A stretch of 32,000 bases of DNA from Candidatus Woesearchaeota archaeon (GCA_002687275.1 NYZT01000021.1:29317-61316); one strand, 5' to 3'; positions 4,742 to 30,800 are shown, numbered from the stretch's first letter. Made by a program: numbers and translations. Notes: generated by a model from the letters alone, not told the origin.

Positions 4742-5186
4742 CTTTCTTTAACTCTGTAATCGTCCGGACGAATTGTGTTGGGTCTTTAAACTTTTTGTAT
4801 ACGGAGGCAAAGCGCACGTACGCTACCTCGTCTAGACTTCGTAGTTCTTCCATCACTAACTCTCCGACTGTCTTGCTCTTGATCTGTTGCTTGTTCATGG
4901 CCAGGATCTTGCTTTCGATCCTGTCTGTCGCCTTGTCAATGCGTTCTTGGCTTATCCCTCGTTTTTCTAGGGCTAGCTCCATGCCTTTGAGGATCTTGGA
5001 ACGGTCGAACAACTCTCTTTCGGCCCCTCTCTTGACGATGAAGACGTCGGTTCTTACTATGCGTTCGTAGGTCGTCCATCGTTTTTTGCATGTCAGACAC
5101 TCTCGTCGACGTCTTGTCTCATTGTCTGGCGTGCGCCTGCTCTCTAGAACTTTGGTTTTTTCCTTGAGGCAGTACGGGCAGCGCAT
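4719..5186 (-). CDS. nrdR: NrdR-type transcriptional repressor (Zn ribbon + ATP-cone)
   Basis: MRCPYCLKEKTKVLESRRTPDNETRRRRECLTCKKRWTTYERI is the NrdR zinc-ribbon signature. It is followed by an ATP-cone-like region (VIKRDGxxExFDRxKI type). The 3' end overlaps the nrdJ start by 23 nt. Confidence 0.9.
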   Translation of the reverse strand: MRCPYCLKEKTKVLESRRTPDNETRRRRECLTCKKRWTTYERIVRTDVFIVKRGAERELFDRSKILKGMELALEKRGISQERIDKATDRIESKILAMNKQQIKSKTVGELVMEELRSLDEVAYVRFASVYKKFKDPTQFVRTITELKKDGAKIKI

Positions 5187-6773: not shown

Positions 6774-6844
6774 TATCGGGTATACGATAGAAGTATATAA
6801 ATATATCGGTTATGCGATATCCACGTTCTATTGGATACGCGATA
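6774..6844. promoter_or_regulatory. Three TATCG-N6-CGATA inverted-repeat operators in the divergent PadR / small-ORF promoter
   Basis: O1 6774-6789 TATCGGGTATACGATA. O2 6804-6819 TATCGGTTATGCGATA. O3 6829-6844 TATTGGATACGCGATA (one mismatch). They are interleaved with TATA elements at 6792-6806 (minus-strand gene) and 6848-6855 (PadR gene). Confidence 0.55.
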
Positions 6845-6875
6845 CACTTATATATCCCCAAAACATCCCAACCCT

Positions 6876-16348: not shown

Positions 16349-16420
16349 GGTGGCTGTGGCGTAATGGTAGCGTAGAGGCTTGTGGAGCCTCTGGCCCGGG
16401 TTCGATTCCCGGCAGCCGCC
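16349..16420 (+). tRNA. tRNA-His (anticodon GTG) with genomically encoded G-1; no encoded CCA
   Basis: Folded by hand. Acceptor GTGGCTG/CAGCCGC. D arm GCGT-AATGGTA-GCGT (two G-U pairs). Anticodon arm GAGGC-TTGTGGA-GCCTC. 4-nt variable loop. T arm CCGGG-TTCGATT-CCCGG. Discriminator C16420 can pair with the extra 5' G16349, which is a His-specific feature. Confidence 0.9.
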
Positions 16421-16433
16421 TTCGAGGTGCAAA

Positions 16434-17678
16434 ATGCCAAAAGGAATGAAGGATTACTATCCAGAGGAAAAGGCAGTACGCGAAAAAATGTACGCGACCT
16501 TCAAAGCCAGAGCAAAAGCGTACGGCTTCCAAGAGGTAGAAATGCCGGTCATGGAAACCGTAGAAAACCTCACCGCAAAATCTGGCCCAGACAAGAAAGA
16601 GCAAATCTTTTTGCTAGAAAAAAGAAGCAACGAACAGCTAGGACTGCGGTTTGACCTCACCATACCCATGACCAGACTCTTCGTGGCCAAACAAAAAGAG
16701 CTACCCAAACCCGTCAAATGGTTCTGCGTGGACAAGAACTGGCGTTACGAAGCACCCCAAAAAGGAAGACTACGAGAGTTCTACCAGTTCGGCGTAGAAG
16801 TCTTTGGCTCTGAGAGCCCAAGAGTGGACGCAGAGGTCATCAACCTCGTCATAGACTGCATGCAAGCCTTTGGACTAACCGAAAAAGAAGTCATCATGAA
16901 GGTCAACAGCAGAAAACTCCTAGAAGGATTGCTCGCCTCTTACGTCTCACCCAAACAAATGGTAGACGTCATCCGCGCCATCGACAGAGCGGCAGGCGAA
17001 GACCAGGAAACCCTCAAAAAAGAGCTCAAAGGCATAGGCATTGAGAACGACGAGGTCGTCAAGCTCGCCCAGATCAAAGGAAGCATGCAAGAGGTAGCAT
17101 CACAGATAGCAAACTGCGACATAACCGAAGAAGGAAAGGAAGAGCTAGAAAAATTGAAGCAAGCCTGCGCCTTACTACCCAAAGCATGGGTCGAGGTAGA
17201 CCTCGGACTAGCAAGAGGACTGGACTACTACACCGGCATCGTGTTCGAGGCCTTTGACAGAGCAGGCGAGCTACGAGCGCTAGCAGGCGGCGGAAGATAC
17301 GACGCCCTGACCTCGTTGCTCGGCGGCGAAGACACACCCGCAACAGGCTTCGGCTTCGGCATACTCCCCTTCAGCATCTACTTAGAAGAAAAAGGGTTGG
17401 TGCCAAAAACAGGCTTTGTCATCGAATACTTTGTCGCACCCGTAGACGAGGCAGTCGTGCCAGAAGCCTTCCGCATCACAGAAAAACTACGAAAAAAGTT
17501 CAACGTCGAGGTAGACCTAGCCGGCAGAAAACTCAGCAAACAATTTGAGTACGCAGCATCCATCGGAGCAAAAAAAGTCATCGTGGTAGGCTCACGAGAC
17601 CTAGAAAAGGGCCTCGTCACCGTCCGAGACCTTGCCAAGGGCAAGGAAGAGCAGGTCAAGGTTGAAGACCTAGGTTAG
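16434..17678 (+). CDS. hisS: Histidine--tRNA ligase
   Basis: MPKGMKDYYPEE start, motif 2 region WRYEAPQKGRLREFYQFGVEVFG and motif 3 region LAGGGRYD. GAGGTG lies 5 nt upstream of the ATG at 16434. The track's 16380 start would overlap the tRNA. Confidence 0.95.
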   Translation: MPKGMKDYYPEEKAVREKMYATFKARAKAYGFQEVEMPVMETVENLTAKSGPDKKEQIFLLEKRSNEQLGLRFDLTIPMTRLFVAKQKELPKPVKWFCVDKNWRYEAPQKGRLREFYQFGVEVFGSESPRVDAEVINLVIDCMQAFGLTEKEVIMKVNSRKLLEGLLASYVSPKQMVDVIRAIDRAAGEDQETLKKELKGIGIENDEVVKLAQIKGSMQEVASQIANCDITEEGKEELEKLKQACALLPKAWVEVDLGLARGLDYYTGIVFEAFDRAGELRALAGGGRYDALTSLLGGEDTPATGFGFGILPFSIYLEEKGLVPKTGFVIEYFVAPVDEAVVPEAFRITEKLRKKFNVEVDLAGRKLSKQFEYAASIGAKKVIVVGSRDLEKGLVTVRDLAKGKEEQVKVEDLG

Positions 17679-18289: not shown

Positions 18290-18328
18290 CGGAAATCTTC
18301 CGGAATTTCTTAGCAAACTCATATAAAA
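18290..18328 (+). promoter_or_regulatory. Shared promoter module copy 1: CGGAAATCTTCCGGAA-N14-CATATAAAA
   Basis: 16-mer at 18290-18305, TATA at 18320-18328, exact 14-nt gap. Upstream of the TumE-like gene. Confidence 0.55.
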
Positions 18329-18411
18329 CGATCAGCTGACTTGTTTCTAAGCGAAACATTTAAATTATGGTACTGCATACCCTATGGTATGCAATACCCG
18401 AGAAAACCATC

Positions 18412-18678
18412 ATGGAAATTCCACGGTATGAAAAACAGTGGATTGGGGAGGGCCTCTTTGTGGAGATGACGCTCTATCCTACTGCCTCAGGACCCAAGTT
18501 TAGCTTGGTGCTCATCGACCACGGAAAAAGAGTTGTGGGAATTGACAATCATGAGAACAAACCACCACACAAACATGTGGGCGCAAGAGAACTGCCATAC
18601 CCTTTCATCACACTCGATAAGTTGTTTACAGACTTTTGGCAGCTCGTTGTGGAATACTTGGAGAAAAAAAATGGCTAA
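18412..18678 (+). CDS. TumE/DUF6516-like putative toxin component
   Basis: LFVEMTLYP...FSLVLIDHGKRVVGIDNHENKPPHKHVGARELPYPFITLDKLFTDFWQLV fits my recollection of the family pattern (GYDNxxG..HxH...E.Y.F.....L..DF). An alternative in-frame ATG lies at 18367. I prefer 18412 because 18374-18393 is a perfect palindrome, which looks more like an operator or UTR. Confidence 0.65.
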   Translation: MEIPRYEKQWIGEGLFVEMTLYPTASGPKFSLVLIDHGKRVVGIDNHENKPPHKHVGARELPYPFITLDKLFTDFWQLVVEYLEKKNG

Positions 18679-19063
18679 AACACTCATCATACAAGTCCGC
18701 AGCATTTGGGAATCCTTTAAGGAATTCCGTCATGAGTACGAAAATGCAAAAAAGGGCAAAATGAAGGGCGGCTATTATCTGACTTTCGCCAACATGGCCT
18801 TGTTCCGTAAGACGATTACGCCGAAGAGGCTAGAGCTAGTGCATGTCATCGCTTCCAAAAAGCCTTCTTCTGTTAGGCAACTAGCCGCACTAGTAAGCCG
18901 TGATTACAAAAGCGTCAGCCAGGACCTCGCCATCCTCGAGGACAACGGCCTGGTAACGTTTTCTTCTCACAAAGGCCGAAAAATTCCTCAAGCAGCATAC
19001 GACAACCTCCACATAAAGATTCCGTTAGTGGCCACCCAGCGAGTAAACAATCCACCCCCCTAA
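18671..19063 (+). CDS. Winged-helix DNA-binding protein, TumA-like putative antitoxin/regulator
   Basis: MAKTLIIQVRSIWESFKEF...ITPKRLELVHVIASKKPSSVRQLAALVSRDYKSVSQDLAILEDNGLV is a MarR/ArsR-like wHTH. Its ATG overlaps the upstream stop (ATGGCTAA, 8-nt overlap). Confidence 0.7.
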   Translation: MAKTLIIQVRSIWESFKEFRHEYENAKKGKMKGGYYLTFANMALFRKTITPKRLELVHVIASKKPSSVRQLAALVSRDYKSVSQDLAILEDNGLVTFSSHKGRKIPQAAYDNLHIKIPLVATQRVNNPPP

Positions 19064-19096
19064 AAAGCAGGTGTTGTTAGTCTTGGGATCTCACAG

Positions 19097-19119
19097 GTAA
19101 ATAATCAGATGATTGTTTA
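19097..19119. repeat. 23-bp palindromic repeat, copy A (GTAAATAATCAGATGATTGTTTA)
   Basis: 20 of 23 positions match copy B. Arms are TAAATAATCA / TGATTGTTTA (9 of 10 complementary). Overlaps the stop codon of the 19117..19785 gene. Confidence 0.6.
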
Positions 19120-19785
19120 GTCGCTATGACATTTTTCGATTCCAATCACATATATCATGTTGTCGTCCAATGTGTTCAATTCGAAGAGTCCATTCTTGTC
19201 GTGTAAACGCATACCGTCCGAACTCTCCCCCAGAGGCCGAAGGTCTCTGGAGCGTAACGTTTCTTCACTAACCGATTCAATTCTCTTTCCGTCTGCATCA
19301 TGGAGGGTCACACCCACTTCAGGAACCTTAAGAAAAACAGGTACCTTATCTGCATCATTGTTTGGCGCATGGGCTTCTGTTCTTACGCGCATCATGGTCA
19401 CATAGTCAGCGGATGATCCTGAGATTAGATAATTGTGTAGGCTCAGATGAGCTTGCATATTTGGTATTGTGCAACTTGCATAACTTGCCACAGAGGGACC
19501 AGAAGCCCTTGCGTCCGCGATCTCGGAAGGGTCTAGGTCTGCGTATCCATCCTTCACGAAACTGAGAGGAAACGTAAAACGGAAATCCGCGATTATACTT
19601 TCGACTTTTTCGGCCGCCCATGAACGTCCATTGGCGATCCGGATCTGATCCACTTCGAAATCCAAATCAAATTCTTCCCTGCTGTCTTGACGTAAAGAAC
19701 TCATCAGCCTCTCGTAGAAGTTCCCATACATCTCTGTGTTGCTAATGCGCGACAGCCCCATATTCTGTGACTGGATTGATCTCAT
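19117..19785 (-). CDS. Hypothetical protein (222 aa), second gene of a two-gene cassette
   Basis: ORF with AGGGAG 8 nt upstream of the ATG, 21 nt downstream of the 109-aa ORF. No family recognised. Confidence 0.65.
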   Translation of the reverse strand: MRSIQSQNMGLSRISNTEMYGNFYERLMSSLRQDSREEFDLDFEVDQIRIANGRSWAAEKVESIIADFRFTFPLSFVKDGYADLDPSEIADARASGPSVASYASCTIPNMQAHLSLHNYLISGSSADYVTMMRVRTEAHAPNNDADKVPVFLKVPEVGVTLHDADGKRIESVSEETLRSRDLRPLGESSDGMRLHDKNGLFELNTLDDNMIYVIGIEKCHSD

Positions 19786-19806
19786 GATTCGTTTTCTCCC
19801 TTGTAA

Positions 19807-20136
19807 CTATCTTAGGTTTTGTCTTTGTTGTTCCAGATTGTCGGCTTCCTGATCTTCTTGCGTGAAGTCTTGTTCAAGCGTATTCTCGAGTATTTCTTCA
19901 TCATCTTTCGGCTTGGTTTCAGCGTCGAATTTGGTTAGCAAAGTATCCATTTGTTGATGATCTGTAAGTGGAACAGCTCTTGCGTACTGCGTTGCTTCAT
20001 TTTCATAAGTGACCTTGTAGATATCGCGTGGTCCACGTACTAAGTATTTGACTCCATCTTCAACGAATACCCATGCGGCGTCGGTGCTTCCTCGGACATT
20101 TCCGGTTTCACCATCGTAATTGTCAATATGTGTCAT
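19807..20136 (-). CDS. Hypothetical protein (109 aa) with an acidic C-terminal tail, first gene of a two-gene cassette
   Basis: ORF with GGGGGAG upstream of the ATG and TTTATATAG about 60 nt upstream. The C-terminus KPKDDEEILENTLEQDFTQEDQEADNLEQQ is highly acidic. Confidence 0.65.
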   Translation of the reverse strand: MTHIDNYDGETGNVRGSTDAAWVFVEDGVKYLVRGPRDIYKVTYENEATQYARAVPLTDHQQMDTLLTKFDAETKPKDDEEILENTLEQDFTQEDQEADNLEQQRQNLR

Positions 20137-20261
20137 GTTTTCTCCCCCGTAGCGATGTGCTACTTTATGCGTAGAATGGTATAGTATTGAACTATATAAA
20201 CCTGCCGGTTAATTGTGACTTGAAAGGGACGACACAATAGATTACGTGCCCGAGGGCAAGA

Positions 20262-20284
20262 GTAAACAATCAAGTGATTGTTTA
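20262..20284. repeat. 23-bp palindromic repeat, copy B (GTAAACAATCAAGTGATTGTTTA)
   Basis: Perfect 10+2+10 palindrome TAAACAATCA-AG-TGATTGTTTA. It lies 3 nt upstream of promoter-module copy 2 and upstream of the divergent cassette operon. Confidence 0.6.
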
Positions 20285-20287
20285 TCC

Positions 20288-20326
20288 CGGAAATCTTCCG
20301 GAACGGAATGCATAACGCATATAAAG
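20288..20326 (+). promoter_or_regulatory. Shared promoter module copy 2: CGGAAATCTTCCGGAA-N14-CATATAAAG
   Basis: The 16-mer at 20288-20303 is identical to copy 1. TATA at 20318-20326, 14-nt gap. The ATG at 20348 lies 30 nt from the TATA edge, which is leaderless-type spacing. Confidence 0.55.
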
Positions 20327-20347
20327 GGATGATGCTCAAAGAGCTCT

Positions 20348-20614
20348 ATGAGACATCGCGAAAGTGCGTGGCACTACCTGTTCTACTTTTCCTTAGGTGT
20401 TCTAACCGTGTGGACTATTTTGAAGGTGGTAGGCGTCATCAACTCACCAGCGTGGCTGGAGGTGGGCCTTCCTGCAGCACTCATACTTTCCGCTCTTTCT
20501 CTATATCAAAACCTGCTGGACAAATTTCATGTCGTGCTGGTCGAGCTTGGCAAGGTCCAGATAAGAGTAGACCATGTAGAAGAAGACGTTAAAGAAATAA
20601 AAATTACTTCTTAA
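20348..20614 (+). CDS. Small membrane protein (88 aa, two predicted TM helices)
   Basis: WHYLFYFSLGVLTVWTILKVVGV and WLEVGLPAALILSALSLY are hydrophobic spans. The TATA spacing supports this start over the overlapping 20278..20592 frame. Confidence 0.6.
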   Translation: MRHRESAWHYLFYFSLGVLTVWTILKVVGVINSPAWLEVGLPAALILSALSLYQNLLDKFHVVLVELGKVQIRVDHVEEDVKEIKITS

Positions 20615-20639
20615 ATTCTTCATAAAGAAAAGAAAAATA

Positions 20640-20653
20640 GAGGCTTAAGCCTC
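20640..20653. terminator. Perfect 14-bp palindrome between convergent genes
   Basis: GAGGCTTAAGCCTC. On the minus strand it is followed by CTATTTTTCTTTTCTTT, a T-rich run consistent with termination of ftsZ. Confidence 0.45.
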
Positions 20654-20668
20654 GAATTGGTTGTGTCA

Positions 20669-21736
20669 TCACAACATGTCTATGCCTAACTCGTCACTAA
20701 ACACTTTAGTGCGAGGCGTTGCCTGACTAGGGTTAGCCTTGCCCAAGATCCACGGACTCTTGACCCCTGTCACGATGGTCATCACCATGAGCTTGGTCTT
20801 CATCTCTTCCATGATTCTGGCTCCCCAGATCACGTTAGAGTCCTCGTCCATCTGTTGGGTAACTAACTCTCCAACCGTGTTAATCTCATCAAGGGTTAGG
20901 TCGGGACCTCCAACAACCTGGATTAGTGCACCGGTAGCTCCAGTGTACTCGATGTCCAAGAGCGGATTGCTTAGCGCGCCTTTGACGGCTTCCTCCACTC
21001 GGTTGTTTGTGTCACTCACACCCACACCGATGGCAGCTACGCCGCCGTTAGTCATGATGGCCTTGACATCTGCGTAGTCAAGATTCACCAGGCTAGGTAT
21101 GGCTATGGTTTCAACAATACCCTTGATCATGGTGGCAACTAATTCGTTTGCTACGGCAAAGGCTTGTTGTACTGGCAGGTTGCCAGCGATCTTTACCAAG
21201 CGGTTGTTGTCAACCACGATGACTGTGTCTGCAACGTTTCTTAGCTGTTGTAGACCAAATTCGGCTTTGTCAATGCGTGCTCGTTCGATGTTGAACGGCA
21301 TGGTCACAGTGCCAATGACTATGGCACCGTTTTCCTTCACCACTTGCGCTATCACAGGTGCAGCGCCAGTTCCGGTTCCACCTCCCATTCCCGCACATAC
21401 AAATACCATATCACTCCCACGTAACACCTCTCGTAGCTGCATTAAGCTCTCTTGCGCAGCTTCTGTTCCCTTGTTGGGAAAACCGCCGCACCCAAGACCG
21501 CGGGTGATCTCTCTGCCGAGTAGAATTTTCTTATCAGCTTCAGTGATGTCCAGATGTTGCTTGTCTGTGTTGCAGGCGATAACTTCTGCACCACGAATAC
21601 CTTTCTTATACAACCAACTTACCATGTTGTTGCCGCCGCCTCCGACGCCAACGACCTTTATGTTTGCATGACCGAACTCGGTCGCCTCTTGAGCTTGTTG
21701 CTCTTGCTCCAACGCGTTTTCAACTATTAAATCCAT
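20669..21736 (-). CDS. ftsZ: Cell division GTPase FtsZ
   Basis: IKVVGVGGGGNNMV, the tubulin signature GMGGGTGTGAAPV, and NxDxAD (NLDYADV). I chose the start at 21736 (MDLIVENALEQ) because GAGGAGGA lies 8 nt upstream. The track start at 21853 adds a non-FtsZ-like extension. Confidence 0.95.
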   Translation of the reverse strand: MDLIVENALEQEQQAQEATEFGHANIKVVGVGGGGNNMVSWLYKKGIRGAEVIACNTDKQHLDITEADKKILLGREITRGLGCGGFPNKGTEAAQESLMQLREVLRGSDMVFVCAGMGGGTGTGAAPVIAQVVKENGAIVIGTVTMPFNIERARIDKAEFGLQQLRNVADTVIVVDNNRLVKIAGNLPVQQAFAVANELVATMIKGIVETIAIPSLVNLDYADVKAIMTNGGVAAIGVGVSDTNNRVEEAVKGALSNPLLDIEYTGATGALIQVVGGPDLTLDEINTVGELVTQQMDEDSNVIWGARIMEEMKTKLMVMTIVTGVKSPWILGKANPSQATPRTKVFSDELGIDML

Positions 21737-21828
21737 GCTCTGATTCCTCCTCTTTTGTGAGCGTAAAAGGGCTCTCCAGTTTTGGATGGGGGTTTGGTAG
21801 AAACAACGTGGAGAGCCTGTGAGCATCA

Positions 21829-21848
21829 ATTGCGTCTTGCGACGCAAT
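21829..21848 (-). other. Stable hairpin with a GNRA loop in the ftsZ upstream region
   Basis: The minus strand reads ATTGCGTC-GCAA-GACGCAAT (8-bp stem, GCAA tetraloop), about 95 nt upstream of the ftsZ ATG. A second hairpin GTGTG-N7-CACAC lies at 21874-21890. Confidence 0.35.
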
Positions 21849-21949
21849 GTCACCAGTATAGTAGTGTGGTAATATCACACTTCCGTATACTGATACATGG
21901 GATGACCCCACTCATATTTAAACGTTTCGATTTTTAAAGGGAACACTAG

Positions 21950-22012
21950 CCATCATGGAAAAGTGGTGGTAACCTGGTCTCAACCACCAGGAGTGGTGGT
22001 TCGTTTTGATGG
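21950..22012 (+). promoter_or_regulatory. Attenuator-like leader: 5-codon uORF (MEKWW) plus mutually exclusive hairpins and a T-tract
   Basis: ATG GAA AAG TGG TGG TAA at 21955-21972. AGTGGTGGT occurs at 21962-21970 and again at 21992-22000, and both copies are complementary to ACCACCA at 21983-21989. The second hairpin is followed by TCGTTTT. TATA-like elements lie at 21914-21922 and 21931-21939. Confidence 0.25.
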
Positions 22013-22060
22013 AGACAGGCACAAAACATTATATACAGCGAGCATATTCTCTCATCTAGT

Positions 22061-22456
22061 ATGGTTATCCTGTTCGATCGCTTTAACCTGCCACCGGATG
22101 TTTTCGAGCTAATCTTTGCCACAGAGCAGCAGATCATCGTGGCCAAGGAACTCATCAAGTATATAATAGCAAACAAGGGCGAGATCACCAAAACCGAGAT
22201 GAGTGTTTTTGCCACAAAGCTCCACGAGGGCAAGTACGAGAGCGTGCTAGATCGCGGCCAGTACAAAGGAAAAGAAGTCAAGCTGTCATACAACAAACGC
22301 CAATTCTATGACAGGATATTAACACCCATGAAAGCCATGGGCCTTGTAGAATATGATCTCTACAAAAAGACGTACAAGATTAGCGTTCATTTCCAAGCAG
22401 ACATGATGAAGATAGGCATCATGTGGAAAGAAGCGTTACGAAGACTAGGAGTATGA
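22061..22456 (+). CDS. Hypothetical protein (131 aa), possible winged-helix fold
   Basis: ORF with TTATATAC 32 nt upstream. The C-terminal half (SYNKRQFYDRILTPMKAMGLVEYDLYKKTYKIS) resembles a recognition helix plus wing. This is a weak call. Confidence 0.55.
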   Translation: MVILFDRFNLPPDVFELIFATEQQIIVAKELIKYIIANKGEITKTEMSVFATKLHEGKYESVLDRGQYKGKEVKLSYNKRQFYDRILTPMKAMGLVEYDLYKKTYKISVHFQADMMKIGIMWKEALRRLGV

Positions 22457-22550
22457 CTACTCTTCGTCTTCCGGTTCCCAATCTTCTTCACCGGGCATGA
22501 TCATCACCCCGACGATAGAATAAGAGCGTAGTATTTATGTTTTATGGATC

Positions 22551-22589
22551 CAGAAGATTTCCGGAACAACTACCGAAACACATATAAAA
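22551..22589 (+). promoter_or_regulatory. Shared promoter module copy 3: CAGAAGATTTCCGGAA-N14-CATATAAAA
   Basis: 16-mer at 22551-22566. It matches 12 of 16 positions directly, and 15 of 17 as the reverse complement TCCGGAAATCTTCTGGA. TATA at 22581-22589, exact 14-nt gap. Upstream of vapB. Confidence 0.5.
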
Positions 22590-22626
22590 GAAATCCACCT
22601 ATTAATGTTAAACAAGGAGTTATACA

Positions 22627-22818
22627 ATGGTTGTGGTAACAACAAAAAAGATTGGTGGAAGCCTCATGGTAGTCATACCAAGAGACGTGGTCAAAGAAAA
22701 AGACATAGGCCCAGATGAGACCGTGGATGTGGAAGTGAAGAAAGTGAGAAAGAGCTATCTAGGCGTGTTGAAGGGCATGGGAAGACTCACCAAGGAGGAT
22801 AAGTACGACATTGACTAA
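22627..22818 (+). CDS. vapB: AbrB/SpoVT-type antitoxin (VapB-like)
   Basis: MVVVTTKKIGGSLMVVIPRDVVKEKDIGPDETVDVEV is a swapped-hairpin AbrB-type N-terminus. AAGGAG lies 7 nt upstream. It overlaps the PIN gene by 8 nt. Confidence 0.8.
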   Translation: MVVVTTKKIGGSLMVVIPRDVVKEKDIGPDETVDVEVKKVRKSYLGVLKGMGRLTKEDKYDID

Positions 22819-23206
22819 GCTTGTTGTAGATGCTTGGTGCTGGGTCGAGTATCTCATTGGAGGGCCGCTAGCACCTATAATTGAAACAATGCTAGACAAG
22901 CACGAGTGCTACACCAGCGCTGTAAGCCTGGCAGAGACAGCGAGCAGGGCCCGGCGAATGGGAAAGGATGAGGCCCTCGCTGTTGAAGCCATCATGCAAA
23001 GATCACGCTTGGTGACGGTAGACGCCAACCTGGCACTAGAAGCGGGAATACTTCACTCTACAGAAAAGAAGCGCAACAGGCACTTTGGCCTAGGTGATGC
23101 TTTCGTACTCAGCACCTCCAAAAGCATAAAGGGAAGAATACTCACCAACGACAAGGATTTTGCACACCTTACTAACGTTTGGATGCTCGATAGACTGAAA
23201 AAATAA
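22811..23206 (+). CDS. vapC: PIN-domain ribonuclease toxin (VapC-like)
   Basis: LVVDAWCWVEYL (first Asp), SLAETASR (Glu), GDAFVLSTS (Asp) and ILTNDKDF (Asp) give the PIN acidic quartet. TTG start with no in-frame ATG nearby. Confidence 0.85.
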   Translation: MTKLVVDAWCWVEYLIGGPLAPIIETMLDKHECYTSAVSLAETASRARRMGKDEALAVEAIMQRSRLVTVDANLALEAGILHSTEKKRNRHFGLGDAFVLSTSKSIKGRILTNDKDFAHLTNVWMLDRLKK

Positions 23207-27841: not shown

Positions 27842-30800
27842 TTATACCATCTTTGGAAGATCGATGTTCCCAGCCTTTATGCGGTTAGGGATAGCACTTT
27901 GCTGAGGCCGATAGAGAATCCCAAAGGCGCGGTCCAAGCGCTGACGAGTGTCTCTGTATTCTCTTCTTAGCATTTTTGGAGTCTTCCCAAACCGGGCCTG
28001 AAGCGCTTGGACAGGCACCGTGCCTCGCCAGTCCCACTCCTCTATCCGTGCATCCCAAACCTCCACTTCCTCCTCAGTAAGTTCCGCAGCTTCGTAGAGT
28101 TCCTGTCGGTTGAGATGTACGGGGCCTAACTCCCCTTCTATCCTATTTGGAGGCACCGGCTTACAAGGAACGTCAAAGATCAAACAGAGAAGTTTACGAT
28201 TGCTAACATAATCACCAGGAGAGTCCAACTTAGGAAGAACGCGTTCGTGAACAAAACGTTTGTTAAGCAGATGTGAAGAAGGATTTCTAACGCCAAAGTG
28301 CCCACCGAAACATCCTTGGTCCTTAAGATCGTGACTTGACAGATACCACGATCCTTTCCTTGTAAACATATCTCCAACGGAATCAAACACTTGGGAGATT
28401 CCCCCTTCCCACTTGCTGTTAGAATAAAGCACCTTGTCAAAAACAATGTCAGGATATGCAAATTTGATCACTTCCGGGAAATTTCCGTCAAAGAATCTCG
28501 CGACCCAGTGTTTAACTCGGCTACTCAAAGAGTTAAAGGTAGGACGGGAGTTGCTGTCGATTTCATAACCGAAATCACGCTCGAGGCAGGTCCGCAACCG
28601 CAATCTTGCATAGCGATCCCAGGGAAGTTTCTTTCCTTGATCAAGTATCCTTTTGGTTTGTGCGGTCACTCGTTCTCCGCCTTTCTCAAAGGCAGGTCGA
28701 TTATGACGAATCGCTTCTAGGAGAACCTTAACCTCTGCAGTTCTCAACTCAGTAGAGTCTACATCTCTCCCCTCAAAAGATTCTTGCAGCGTTCTTCTCT
28801 GGCTATCGCTCAGCGGAGCTGTCTCCACCAAAGAATCTAACACTTCCAGATGTTGTTCTAGTGGCGTCTTACGTTTAGGCAGAAGAATCCTTCGATCATT
28901 GCCCGTCATGCCCGCCAACATCTCCAGCTTCCGATCAGCCCCCGGACCAAACTTGGCGTCTGCCATTTCCTTGTACAATTGGTCCAGACTTCCACCGTTC
29001 TCTATCGCTCGCTTAATAGGATCATAGCGGGTGTTCGTGGTTCGGTCAAAAAATTTAGGGTTTGGCAAGTAGCCTCTTGAGTGGCTCATAAGGTCCCTCA
29101 AGCCATAAGCACAAGAATGATGACTTAGGGAGTCGCTAAGGCTTGCCTTTGCGGCAAAGAGCGCAGTATTTATTTGAGAGAGGAGCATGCCTTCCTCGGC
29201 GGCCATGTCTTTTTGCAACTGCCCGCGTAAATAGCGTACAAGCAAACGGTGTTGGAGACCAGAAAGCTGGTCCAGACCCCTCTTTGCGTCACGGATGATT
29301 CTTGGATACTCCTCTATCTCCGCATCACCCACGAGCCACTGCAGACGCCGAGGATGGAGCTCCAAGCCACCAAGAGCATCTTCCATCAAGCGTTGGAACT
29401 CGTTGTTTTCCGCAGCGCTATCAGGAGAAAGCTCTCTTCCTTTTAAGTTAGTCCAAAAGTAAGAATCTCCTTCATCCTCCACTATTTGGATCATCGATCG
29501 GCCATGAAGTTTGAGCACAGTGTATCTTACTGCTGCCGAAAGGTAGGGAATAGGATTGTCAATTCTCCTGTCCGGATCTCTGAGACTGGCTTGATAGAGA
29601 GACAGGGCAACTGATTGCTGTGCCTCCTCTGCCTGGTGCTGGCTACGCGAGTATTTCAGTCCCATACGAAAGAGAATGTCAAAGATGTTTTCGCCATCAA
29701 CGAGGCCGTTTTCCTGCATGCCGCTAACAATTTCCGCGAGAGTTAACGAGCCACCAACGTCGACAGGCGCGGTGGCCACAGCAAAAGGACTCACTCCCCC
29801 AACATGACGCCCTTCCAGGTCAACGCGAAGTACATGATCTCCCTTTCTAACAAGACAATACTTGTCCGTCTGGTCAGGTCCATGTTCGATAACGAGCGCT
29901 GCCCGGTCAGGCTGGTCAAAGGTCACGCTCTTCGCGAGGTTGCCAGAAACTTGAAATGTCGGAGATAAACCCTGCAAGGTCCACGGTTCTTTTTCAGGAT
30001 CAACATTGAGTAGAGCGATCCACCTCGTGTCTTCCTTCAACAGGGCCATTCCGTGAGTTACAAGACCATAAGGAAAAGTGTGCATTGCCTCCACGCCCTC
30101 ATCGTGCATGAGCAGCGTTCGGCCGAGAATCTCCGCAGATTTAGCCTTGCTTTGTACTTTCACAGGATGTAATGATTCATCCCACAAACTCAGAGACTTG
30201 CCCCCGCGAACGGTAAGTGGTCCGTAAAAAGGCACCAGCTTTGGATGACGGAAATGCTCAGGTTGGGCCATCCATAAGGCGAACAAATTTTCTCGCGCCT
30301 CACCCCTAGCTTGCTGGAATGTCACCTCTGAAGCGTCTCCCAACGCTCTTCTCACCGCGGCACTCTTAGGCAGTGGCTCAAGATAGTCCACTAATAACAC
30401 CTTGCCTTCCAGATCAGAGACGACTGTGTTGGTCTGGCCCCACGGATTCCTAGAACGCAGGAAGGTTATGGCCTCGCCACCACGTCCTAACCCTAGCTGA
30501 TAATTTTTCCCCAGGAGTCTTGTTTTGCCCTGAGGATCCAACCTACGCATGCCCAGGACTTGGTGGTCCGAACCGCCCTTCTTGTCTTCTTTGGCGATAA
30601 ATCCCCTCGCCTTTTTCAAACGGAACGGACGGCCATACTCCTGCCCATCCAACTCAAAGGCAAGGTCTGCCCTTCGAAAACCTCTGATGTTGTAACTCAC
30701 CCTAACCGTCTTACCTATAGCTTCCGAAGGGAGCCCGCCACAGTAGAGCATCTGTCTTTCAACCATGATTCGGGTACAACCCTCGCCGTTAGTGGATCGC

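Follow-up and report, generated by a model that had tools for sequence, protein, structure and literature searches.

Three promoters on the plus strand of a 32,000-nucleotide (nt) stretch of DNA from a Candidatus Woesearchaeota archaeon (GCA_002687275.1 NYZT01000021.1:29317-61316; this whole stretch is called the window below) share one 39-bp module, made of a 16-bp palindrome, exactly 14 bp of spacer and the TATA box CATATAAA. The genes that follow are of toxin type: a TumE/TumA pair, a gene for an 88-amino-acid (aa) membrane protein and a VapB/VapC pair. We describe the module by its sequence architecture, its conservation, its promoter geometry, the genes with which it is associated and its behaviour when gene cassettes are exchanged. 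The palindrome is probably an upstream binding site for one conserved dimeric transcription factor, set in a composite promoter and acting on top of the private autoregulation of the toxin–antitoxin (TA) pairs. What emerges is a lineage-wide cis-regulatory module on mobile toxin-type cassettes in DPANN archaea, of which our literature searches found no description.

All three copies can be read directly in the sequence, with the fixed 14-nt spacer that had been predicted. Copy 1 (palindrome CGGAAATCTTCCGGAA at 18290-18305, then CATATAAAA at 18320-18328) precedes TumE/TumA; its TATA box CATATAAA occupies 18320-18327, and the spacer contains GCAAAC (18313-18318), which resembles a transcription factor B recognition element (BRE). 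Copy 2 (palindrome CGGAAATCTTCCGGAA at 20288-20303, CATATAAAG at 20318-20326, TATA box at 20318-20325) precedes the 88-aa gene. Copy 3 (palindrome CAGAAGATTTCCGGAA at 22551-22566, CATATAAAA at 22581-22589, TATA box at 22581-22588) precedes VapB/VapC. The 16-mers of copies 1 and 2 are identical and their spacers differ (65-74% identity among the window copies), as the original prediction had it. Copy 3 had been described as a reverse-complement match at 15 of 17 positions; it is indeed the same palindromic site, and the count is 14 of 16. The central triplet is ATC in copies 1 and 2 and its complement, GAT, in copy 3. Copy 3 also aligns directly, because TTCCGGAA is itself palindromic and every copy holds it in one register relative to its TATA box.

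Chance is excluded as the origin of the three copies. In the window, the 16-mer with up to three mismatches has four matches (0.36 expected), CGGAA-N3-TTCCG occurs twice (0.01 expected) and CATATAAA occurs three times (0.43 expected), each time 14 nt after a 16-mer. A repeat search recovers the module as a 31-nt family, and three copies within 4.3 kb are an unusual clustering. The fourth match to the 16-mer, CGGAAATTTCCCGGAA at 28472-28487 on the minus strand, has two mismatches and is followed after 13 nt by CATATCCT. It lies inside a 1278-aa open reading frame (ORF), without CATATAAA, and is probably a chance look-alike, although it may be an internal promoter; the claim that the window holds no further intergenic copy is therefore sound.

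Two other accounts of the repeated element were set aside. A terminator, structured RNA or structured DNA was dropped because the folding energies of the 16-mer hairpins (-1.2 to -5.4 kcal/mol, z-scores -0.6 to -1.8) are not significant, and because an Rfam scan of the window found only a tRNA-His and no RNA family at the module. A recent duplicate, that is, a repeat or 'mobile promoter', was rejected on account of the divergence between the window spacers, the variation of spacers across instances elsewhere and the unrelated flanks.

The module instances look like real promoters of leaderless mRNAs. Among 24 distinct instances, an ATG lies 21-23 nt past the TATA box in 19 (binomial p = 2e-21), with transcription starts placed by sequence geometry. 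The order of elements is that of an archaeal BRE/TATA core promoter: AA-N-R, then CATATAAA, then an ATG at leaderless distance. The view that the three window sites are promoters with a shared fixed geometry is borne out here; for example, the leaderless ATG of the 88-aa gene is 22 nt past its box. For comparison, we inspected 90 nt of upstream sequence per window gene, about 35 regions besides the modules. Housekeeping promoters with a clear box read AAA-n-C/G, TTTATA(C/A), about 20-22 nt and then ATG, a distance that marks window transcripts as mostly leaderless. Neither the palindrome nor CATATAAA occurs in any of these roughly 35 regions. The module was accordingly rejected as a general (housekeeping) promoter consensus, being absent from the other window promoters and, as an exact copy, from about 134 kb of unselected loci (see below).

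That CATATAAA is the box of every window module, and of none of the other window promoters, could also mean that a separate class of basal machinery is at work: a paralogous pair of TATA-binding protein (TBP) and transcription factor B (TFB) would read CATATAAA and its BRE, and the palindrome would be accessory or fortuitous. The reverse complement of CATATAAA, TTTATATG, resembles the housekeeping TTTATA(C/A) box, which also speaks for this idea. However, in relaxed matches elsewhere the palindrome, at its usual spacing, is combined with different TATA boxes (TTTATTAA, CATAAAAA and TATTTAAA). Moreover, TFB contacts only a few bp directly upstream of the TATA box, a reach that excludes a palindrome 14 bp further upstream, and we consider a dedicated TBP/TFB pair quite improbable. 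A leftward promoter using TTTATATG, with the palindrome then at the start site, was also considered. It was rejected because the left side has neither a BRE nor conserved flanks and the ATG is fixed in position on the right.

The consensus yCGGAA-N3-TTCCGGAA-N14-CATATAAA is found in many Woesearchaeota and Nanoarchaeia, in public genomes and metagenomes. A genome scan (one genome per species, both strands) for TTTATATG-N{8,20}-TTCCGGAA-NNN-TTC returned at least 116 loci. Among the matches listed, nine are labelled Woesearchaeota, Nanoarchaeota or Nanoarchaeia, and their spacing is 14 in eight cases and 13 in one, whereas 14 of the 107 non-DPANN matches listed have a spacing of 14 (Fisher p = 4e-6, DPANN vs the rest). 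The bacterial matches listed are spread over all spacings with no preference. The expectation that related genomes would keep the 14-nt distance thus holds, and it sets them apart from bacteria. The central triplet is ATC or GAT in seven of the nine DPANN matches listed. A metagenome scan at a fixed spacing of 14 supplied further instances and brought the total to the 24 mentioned above, which come from genomes of 29-50% GC.

Several positions that these search patterns left free are conserved as well. C and G precede GAA in 22 of the 24 instances, the BRE-like AA stands at spacer positions 11-12 in 23-24 of them, and the central triplet is ATC or GAT in 17. The start of the spacer is A/T-rich and the remainder is variable; the spacer of copy 1 resembles TTTCTnnnGCAAA, found in the distant instances L077, L147, L157 and L162 (L numbers denote retrieved loci). 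Conservation of the free positions, combined with a variable spacer, argues that a binding site has been under selection, and against copies of recent origin. Sequence comparison thus finds what is expected of an upstream site: a palindrome under selection, at a fixed distance upstream of the BRE. Within about 260 kb of retrieved DPANN sequence, nearly every exact CGGAA-N3-TTCCG has a TATA box behind it at N13-14, and the site is nearly always intergenic, as had been anticipated. A relaxed scan of the retrieved DPANN loci added further degenerate copies at the same spacing, with none in shuffled controls. A full-module scan of the viral contigs of IMG/VR gave no match, and hence no sign of a virus promoter. 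The window locus itself also occurs on TARA Oceans and other marine contigs, and its proteins bear NCBI names from a Candidatus Woesearchaeota metagenome-assembled genome whose locus tags begin with CMO91_.

The extent of this conservation bears on a methylation-dependent switch, in which TCCGGA or CCGG within the palindrome, a typical restriction-modification target, would modulate the promoter. TTCCGGAA does occur four times in the window against 0.5 expected, and CCGG is somewhat depleted (61 observed, 92 expected). On the other hand, TCCGGA is not depleted (10 observed, 6.5 expected), and no methyltransferase gene was seen in the region of the window examined. What is conserved also exceeds a 6-mer, since it takes in CGGAA-N3, the fixed spacing and the ATC/GAT centre. 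We rate a methylation switch as very improbable.

The module is far from ubiquitous. Loci L172-L178, about 134 kb of Woesearchaeota sequence fetched by way of p131 (a window gene treated below) without regard to the motif, hold two degenerate modules and no exact one. The absence of an exact copy from these loci means that the module is not general at Woesearchaeota TA loci, and the regulon is apparently small, with few sites per genome.

The genes behind the module recur in kind. In the window, operon 1 begins with a TumE-family toxin gene (18367..18678, plus strand; Pfam PF20126, E 6.8e-8, 32.8 bits against a cut-off of 23.4), which is overlapped by the gene for a TumA-like winged helix-turn-helix (HTH) antitoxin of the HVO_A0114 family (18671..19063, plus strand; Pfam PF25212, E 4.8e-23). 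A TumE (DUF6516) gene adjoining a gene for a DNA-binding antitoxin is the arrangement of the TumE-TumA family, which is an experimentally validated TA family (PMC10584680), and operon 1 is predicted to be such a pair with TumE as the putative toxin. A repeat search also found a 13-nt inverted repeat, GGTACTGCATACC / GGTATGCAATACC (18369..18398, plus strand), at the annotated start of the TumE ORF and 3' of the predicted transcription start of operon 1. This repeat may be a private operator of TumA. Its position at the annotated start suggests that the true TumE start may be the ATG at 18412.

Copy 3 is followed by the gene for a VapB-type antitoxin with an AbrB/MazE fold (22627..22818, plus strand; PF04014, E 2.8e-5, 24.4 bits, just below the cut-off of 24.7) and by the gene for a VapC toxin with a PIN domain (22811..23206, plus strand; PF01850, E 9.7e-12, 46 bits, above its cut-off). 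With an overlap of 8 nt, this pair has the form of the VapBC family, in which the gene for a small AbrB/MazE-fold antitoxin overlaps that for a PIN toxin. Pfam therefore agrees with the TumE/TumA-like and VapB/VapC pairs that had been called from the sequence, marginally so for MazE/AbrB. Between the module units, ftsZ lies on the minus strand (20669-21739).

The protein behind copy 2 (88 aa; 20348..20614, plus strand) shows two hydrophobic segments by eye, in keeping with its earlier description as a two-transmembrane protein, and a C-terminal helix. It matched no Pfam family and nothing in PADLOC, which reported a weak Csa3/CasR-type HTH similarity for TumA and none for the other proteins. 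Homologues stand behind modules in L157 (42% identity by tblastn) and L170/L171 (65% identity), and proteins that resemble it, by eye only, in L138 (37 aa) and L043:5711 (117 aa). A word-indexed homologue search gave one match, and the other relatives were recognised in loci that had been selected by the module. The 88-aa protein belongs to a family of small membrane proteins whose genes recur behind the module.

Outside the window the module precedes a range of further genes. PIN and AbrB-type genes are frequent: AbrB with PemK/MazF in L077, a solo PIN in L105 and L132, and a 100-aa membrane protein followed by an 83-aa protein and a PIN in L034. L160 has two tandem modules, the first before DUF4258 and a zinc-finger protein and the second before AbrB. 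The rest comprise a weak YoeB/ParE-like match (L123), a 37-aa membrane peptide with HicB (L138), a 102-aa protein with DUF2283 (L147), a YhcG/DUF1016 nuclease (L131) and other tiny hydrophobic ORFs (L029, L086 and L124/L163). Counted over all instances, PIN appears in four operons, MazE/AbrB in four, and small membrane proteins behind about eight instances. By a rough count from precomputed Pfam annotation, which is not a formal test, about nine of the 21 operons outside the window are of TA type, against an estimated TA background of about 5% in motif-unselected loci. The link to toxin-type genes is thus no local accident, since it recurs upstream of unrelated TA families across Woesearchaeota. 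A private type II TA operator was rejected for the same reason: AbrB-PIN, AbrB-MazF, HicB, DUF4258/zinc-finger, TumE/TumA, solo PIN and membrane-protein genes all have the site in common.

The regulon also hints at reaching beyond toxin genes in some lineages. Module-like sites stand back to back in divergent orientation in L072 (3023-3166 and 4485-4522) and L173 (13094-13175), and the degenerate copies in L072 precede what by eye appear to be CYTH-domain paralogues.

The module moves with the genes it serves. L170 and L171 are loci of a sister strain whose FtsZ is 99% identical to that of the window. At the same place in L171 (10487-11131), VapB is 46% and VapC 42% identical to the window proteins (22551-23206). 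To the left of copy 3, identity of about 97% continues as far as GGATCC, at the palindrome's left edge, and it is high again from the VapC stop codon onwards (flanks 97-99% identical). Judged by this comparison, the VapBC cassette is an allelic replacement, its two breakpoints being the module's left edge and the stop codon of VapC. A breakpoint at the palindrome edge indicates that the module travels with exchangeable cassettes; in L171 the allele brings a BRE and CATATAAA of its own, equally spaced, together with a degenerate palindrome. Elsewhere, TumE/TumA is replaced in L171 by another gene pair with an ordinary promoter, and in L077 the same place 3' of p131 is taken by an AbrB-MazF pair with a module, oriented the other way.

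These same facts (conserved flanks around divergent VapB and VapC, the break at the palindrome edge, another TA pair beside p131 in L077 and the replacement of TumE/TumA) could be explained if the palindrome were a cassette boundary, the 5' junction at which TA and other small genes are exchanged by site-specific or homology-guided recombination. The constant distance to the TATA box would then reflect common descent of a portable promoter, with no dedicated factor. A neighbouring cassette is, in addition, swapped between two fixed 22-nt palindromes. Against this, there is no recombinase gene nearby and no counterpart of the module at the 3' end of the cassette, and a promoter that is simply exchanged together with its gene would also put a break at the edge of the module. 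The palindrome, the TATA distance and the ATG are kept, with differing spacers, across non-homologous genes and genomes of 29-50% GC, which fits selection on a promoter better. Recombination at the site seems unlikely to us as the explanation, and it is compatible with, rather than exclusive of, a factor-binding site.

The 22-nt palindromes just mentioned, GTAAATAATCAGATGATTGTTTA and GTAAACAATCAAGTGATTGTTTA (19097-19119 and 20262-20284), flank a minus-strand two-gene unit at 19117-20136. In the sister strain (L171 7828-8188, L170 470-850) the same palindromes flank a different, single gene of 90-95 aa on the plus strand, and homology between the window and the sister strain breaks exactly at the right-hand palindrome. 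The unit at 19117-20136 looks like a cassette swapped between fixed palindromic boundaries. L171 has one more perfect palindrome, CGGAAATATTCCGGAA (4833-4848), upstream of its tRNA-His/hisS region; it has no TATA box at 14 nt and no counterpart in the window.

Putting these elements together, we propose a composite promoter specific to Woesearchaeota and Nanoarchaeia. It would combine a BRE-like AA-N-R and CATATAAA with a palindrome, yCGGAA-(ATC or GAT)-TTCCG(GAA), placed 14 (rarely 13) bp upstream; the palindrome would thus lie upstream of the BRE, at about -47 to -62 from the predicted transcription start. A dimeric, sequence-specific factor encoded elsewhere in the genome would bind it, and it is plausible that a single trans-acting factor does so. 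The factor would modulate, and probably stimulate, assembly of the pre-initiation complex at the unusual TATA box. In this way a single signal would govern a small number of cassettes that are otherwise unrelated: at least six families of type II TA pairs, together with one family of tiny membrane proteins. Private antitoxin operators, 3' of the TATA box, would remain in place at every TA pair. The cassettes themselves carry the module as they are exchanged between strains.

The invariant distance upstream of the BRE/TATA suggests that the factor probably contacts or recruits TBP/TFB, and hence that it is an activator. Known archaeal repressors rarely act in the region upstream of the BRE, and the activators Ptr2, TFB-RF1 and GvpE do. 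We see activation as a strong contender that falls a little short of probable, and repression as a less favoured possibility; the factor may also have a dual role. A bolder version of the proposal is a master switch in these ultra-small, symbiotic archaea, by which one factor, possibly p131, would co-activate the mobile, strain-variable TA pairs and the tiny membrane toxins upon one signal; incoming cassettes would plug into host control by carrying the site. We offer this version tentatively and think it rather unlikely as a whole.

Several points weigh against the proposal of a shared factor. TTCCGGAA and CATATAAA were forced by the search patterns, so that their conservation is partly ascertainment, and the independent evidence on those positions comes from the window copies and the relaxed matches. 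A PIN operon in L177 does without the module, its promoter being an ordinary TTTATATA one. In the sister strain, the palindrome before VapBC in L171 is degenerate (10 of 16 positions identical to the window copy), the palindrome-TATA spacing of the 88-aa-gene promoter is 1 nt shorter in L170/L171, and the TATA box of the ortholog in L170 reads CATAGAAA. Some instances precede genes of other kinds (an 837-aa protein, a 194-aa protein, CYTH-like genes and possibly a protease). The centres of the half-sites are 7 bp apart, which is unusual for winged-HTH dimers. Lastly, binding by a protein, the sign of its regulation, the signal it answers to and which factor it is are inferences.

The original prediction put forward two winged-HTH proteins of the window as candidates for the shared factor. 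The first, TumA (18671-19063), is rejected because it is strain-specific: no close homologue was found in 5.8 billion protein clusters, and tumA is absent from L171, where the membrane-protein gene still has the palindrome, with the TATA box one nt closer. TumA is probably the private autoregulator of operon 1. Cross-regulation, with TumA or another local antitoxin behind a module coupling the three units, nevertheless deserves a word, given that TumA is a winged-HTH protein in a module-headed operon and that antitoxins normally autoregulate their own operons. The strain-specificity of TumA stands against it, as does the fact that operons elsewhere have unrelated antitoxins (AbrB, HicB, zinc-finger) or none at all (solo PIN, membrane proteins). 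Coupling by a local antitoxin is, in our view, very unlikely.

The second candidate, p131, is a 131-aa winged-helix protein encoded by a core gene (22061..22456, plus strand), for which we found no specific link to the site. It has more than 4100 homologues, of which the best 120 are 71-100% identical, mostly 72-78% across Woesearchaeota/Nanoarchaeia, and it is divergent from ftsZ in every Woesearchaeota locus examined. The protein is basic (isoelectric point 9.4), with an invariant helix, YNKRQFYDRILTPMK, followed by a beta-hairpin. Its AlphaFold2 model (predicted local distance difference test score 78) has a winged-helix layout, and Foldseek returned weak winged-helix matches only (eS19, an ORC winged-helix domain, MukE and MarR; template-modelling scores 0.16-0.58). 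No Pfam or NCBIfam model in the libraries searched matched p131 and no sequence relative was found in the Protein Data Bank; some homologues carry a precomputed PF27297 label. Ribosomal protein eS19 was rejected as its identity because Pfam gave no S19e match. Its conservation would match that of the site, but any core gene would be distributed in the same way, and p131 is a doubtful, low-confidence candidate for the shared factor.

Other features of the surrounding region deserve mention. The 5' region of the minus-strand ftsZ gene has an inverted repeat, GGCTCTCCA ... TGGAGAGCC (21770-21778 and 21809-21817), which is conserved in the distant locus L077 (about 6795-6845) and may be a structured leader or an ftsZ operator. 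The divergent intergenic region of ftsZ and p131 contains a 20-nt palindrome, AACCACCAGGAGTGGTGGTT (21982-22001), with a GTGGTGGT repeat nearby; this is not conserved in L077. Further upstream, a tRNA-His(GTG) gene (16349-16421) lies immediately before the histidyl-tRNA synthetase gene, hisS (16434-17678). The order hisS, variable island, ftsZ, p131 is kept in most related loci.

TA modules are usually treated as self-contained, autoregulated units. If our reading is right, a host lineage can put a mobile toxin repertoire, comprising at least six unrelated TA families and small membrane proteins, under common transcriptional control. Genetics is not yet possible in DPANN archaea, and the module provides a concrete, testable 39-bp cis-element with a defined consensus. 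It could be used as a handle for finding the factor, as a marker for new toxin-type genes and as a portable regulated promoter.

Several known systems share some of these features. Canonical type II TA autoregulation, by the antitoxin or by the TA complex, involves the same kinds of genes (VapBC, MazEF, HicB, RelE-like, TumEA) and a palindrome at the promoter. However, each of its operators is private, lies over the core promoter and binds the cognate antitoxin, whereas the module lies upstream of the core promoter and precedes unrelated antitoxin folds or genes without an antitoxin. 'Mobile promoters', reportedly described by Matus-Garcia et al. in 2012 as near-identical recent copies within one genome, likewise place the same promoter upstream of non-homologous genes and are tied to mobile DNA. 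In contrast, the module conserves functional positions only, its window spacers being 65-74% identical, and its instances span very divergent genomes. The NrpR operator of methanogens (GGAA-N6-TTCC) also has inverted GGAA/TTCC half-sites in an archaeal promoter region; it is located at the TATA box or start, or downstream of either, and represses nitrogen-assimilation genes in Euryarchaeota. The module differs from it in having N3 rather than N6 and in involving no nitrogen genes.

In the logic of its targets, the module resembles the bacterial SOS response, where boxes for one host factor, LexA, precede tisB, symE, hokE, dinJ-yafQ and yafNO. In both cases one palindromic box stands before unrelated toxin genes (small membrane toxins and type II TA pairs), in addition to the regulation that these genes have of their own. 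LexA represses, and its box overlaps the bacterial promoter, whereas the module's box lies upstream of an archaeal BRE/TATA; LexA is not known from archaea. In its predicted working, the module is closest to archaeal upstream activating sequences. Ptr2, a member of the Lrp (leucine-responsive regulatory protein) family, acts at the rb2 and fdxA promoters of Methanocaldococcus jannaschii, TFB-RF1 acts in Pyrococcus furiosus, and GvpE acts through an upstream activating sequence in haloarchaea. Archaeal sites of the Lrp family (also called feast/famine regulatory proteins) are typically 13 bp long, 'abcdeWWWedcba', and the 5-3-5 layout of CGGAA-N3-TTCCG has this very form. Like the Ptr2, TFB-RF1 and GvpE sites, through which a factor assists the recruitment of TBP or TFB, the module places a palindrome or repeat directly upstream of the BRE/TATA at a fixed distance. 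Unlike them, it has a different sequence, extends across a DPANN lineage and sits on mobile toxin-type cassettes rather than at metabolic or gas-vesicle genes.

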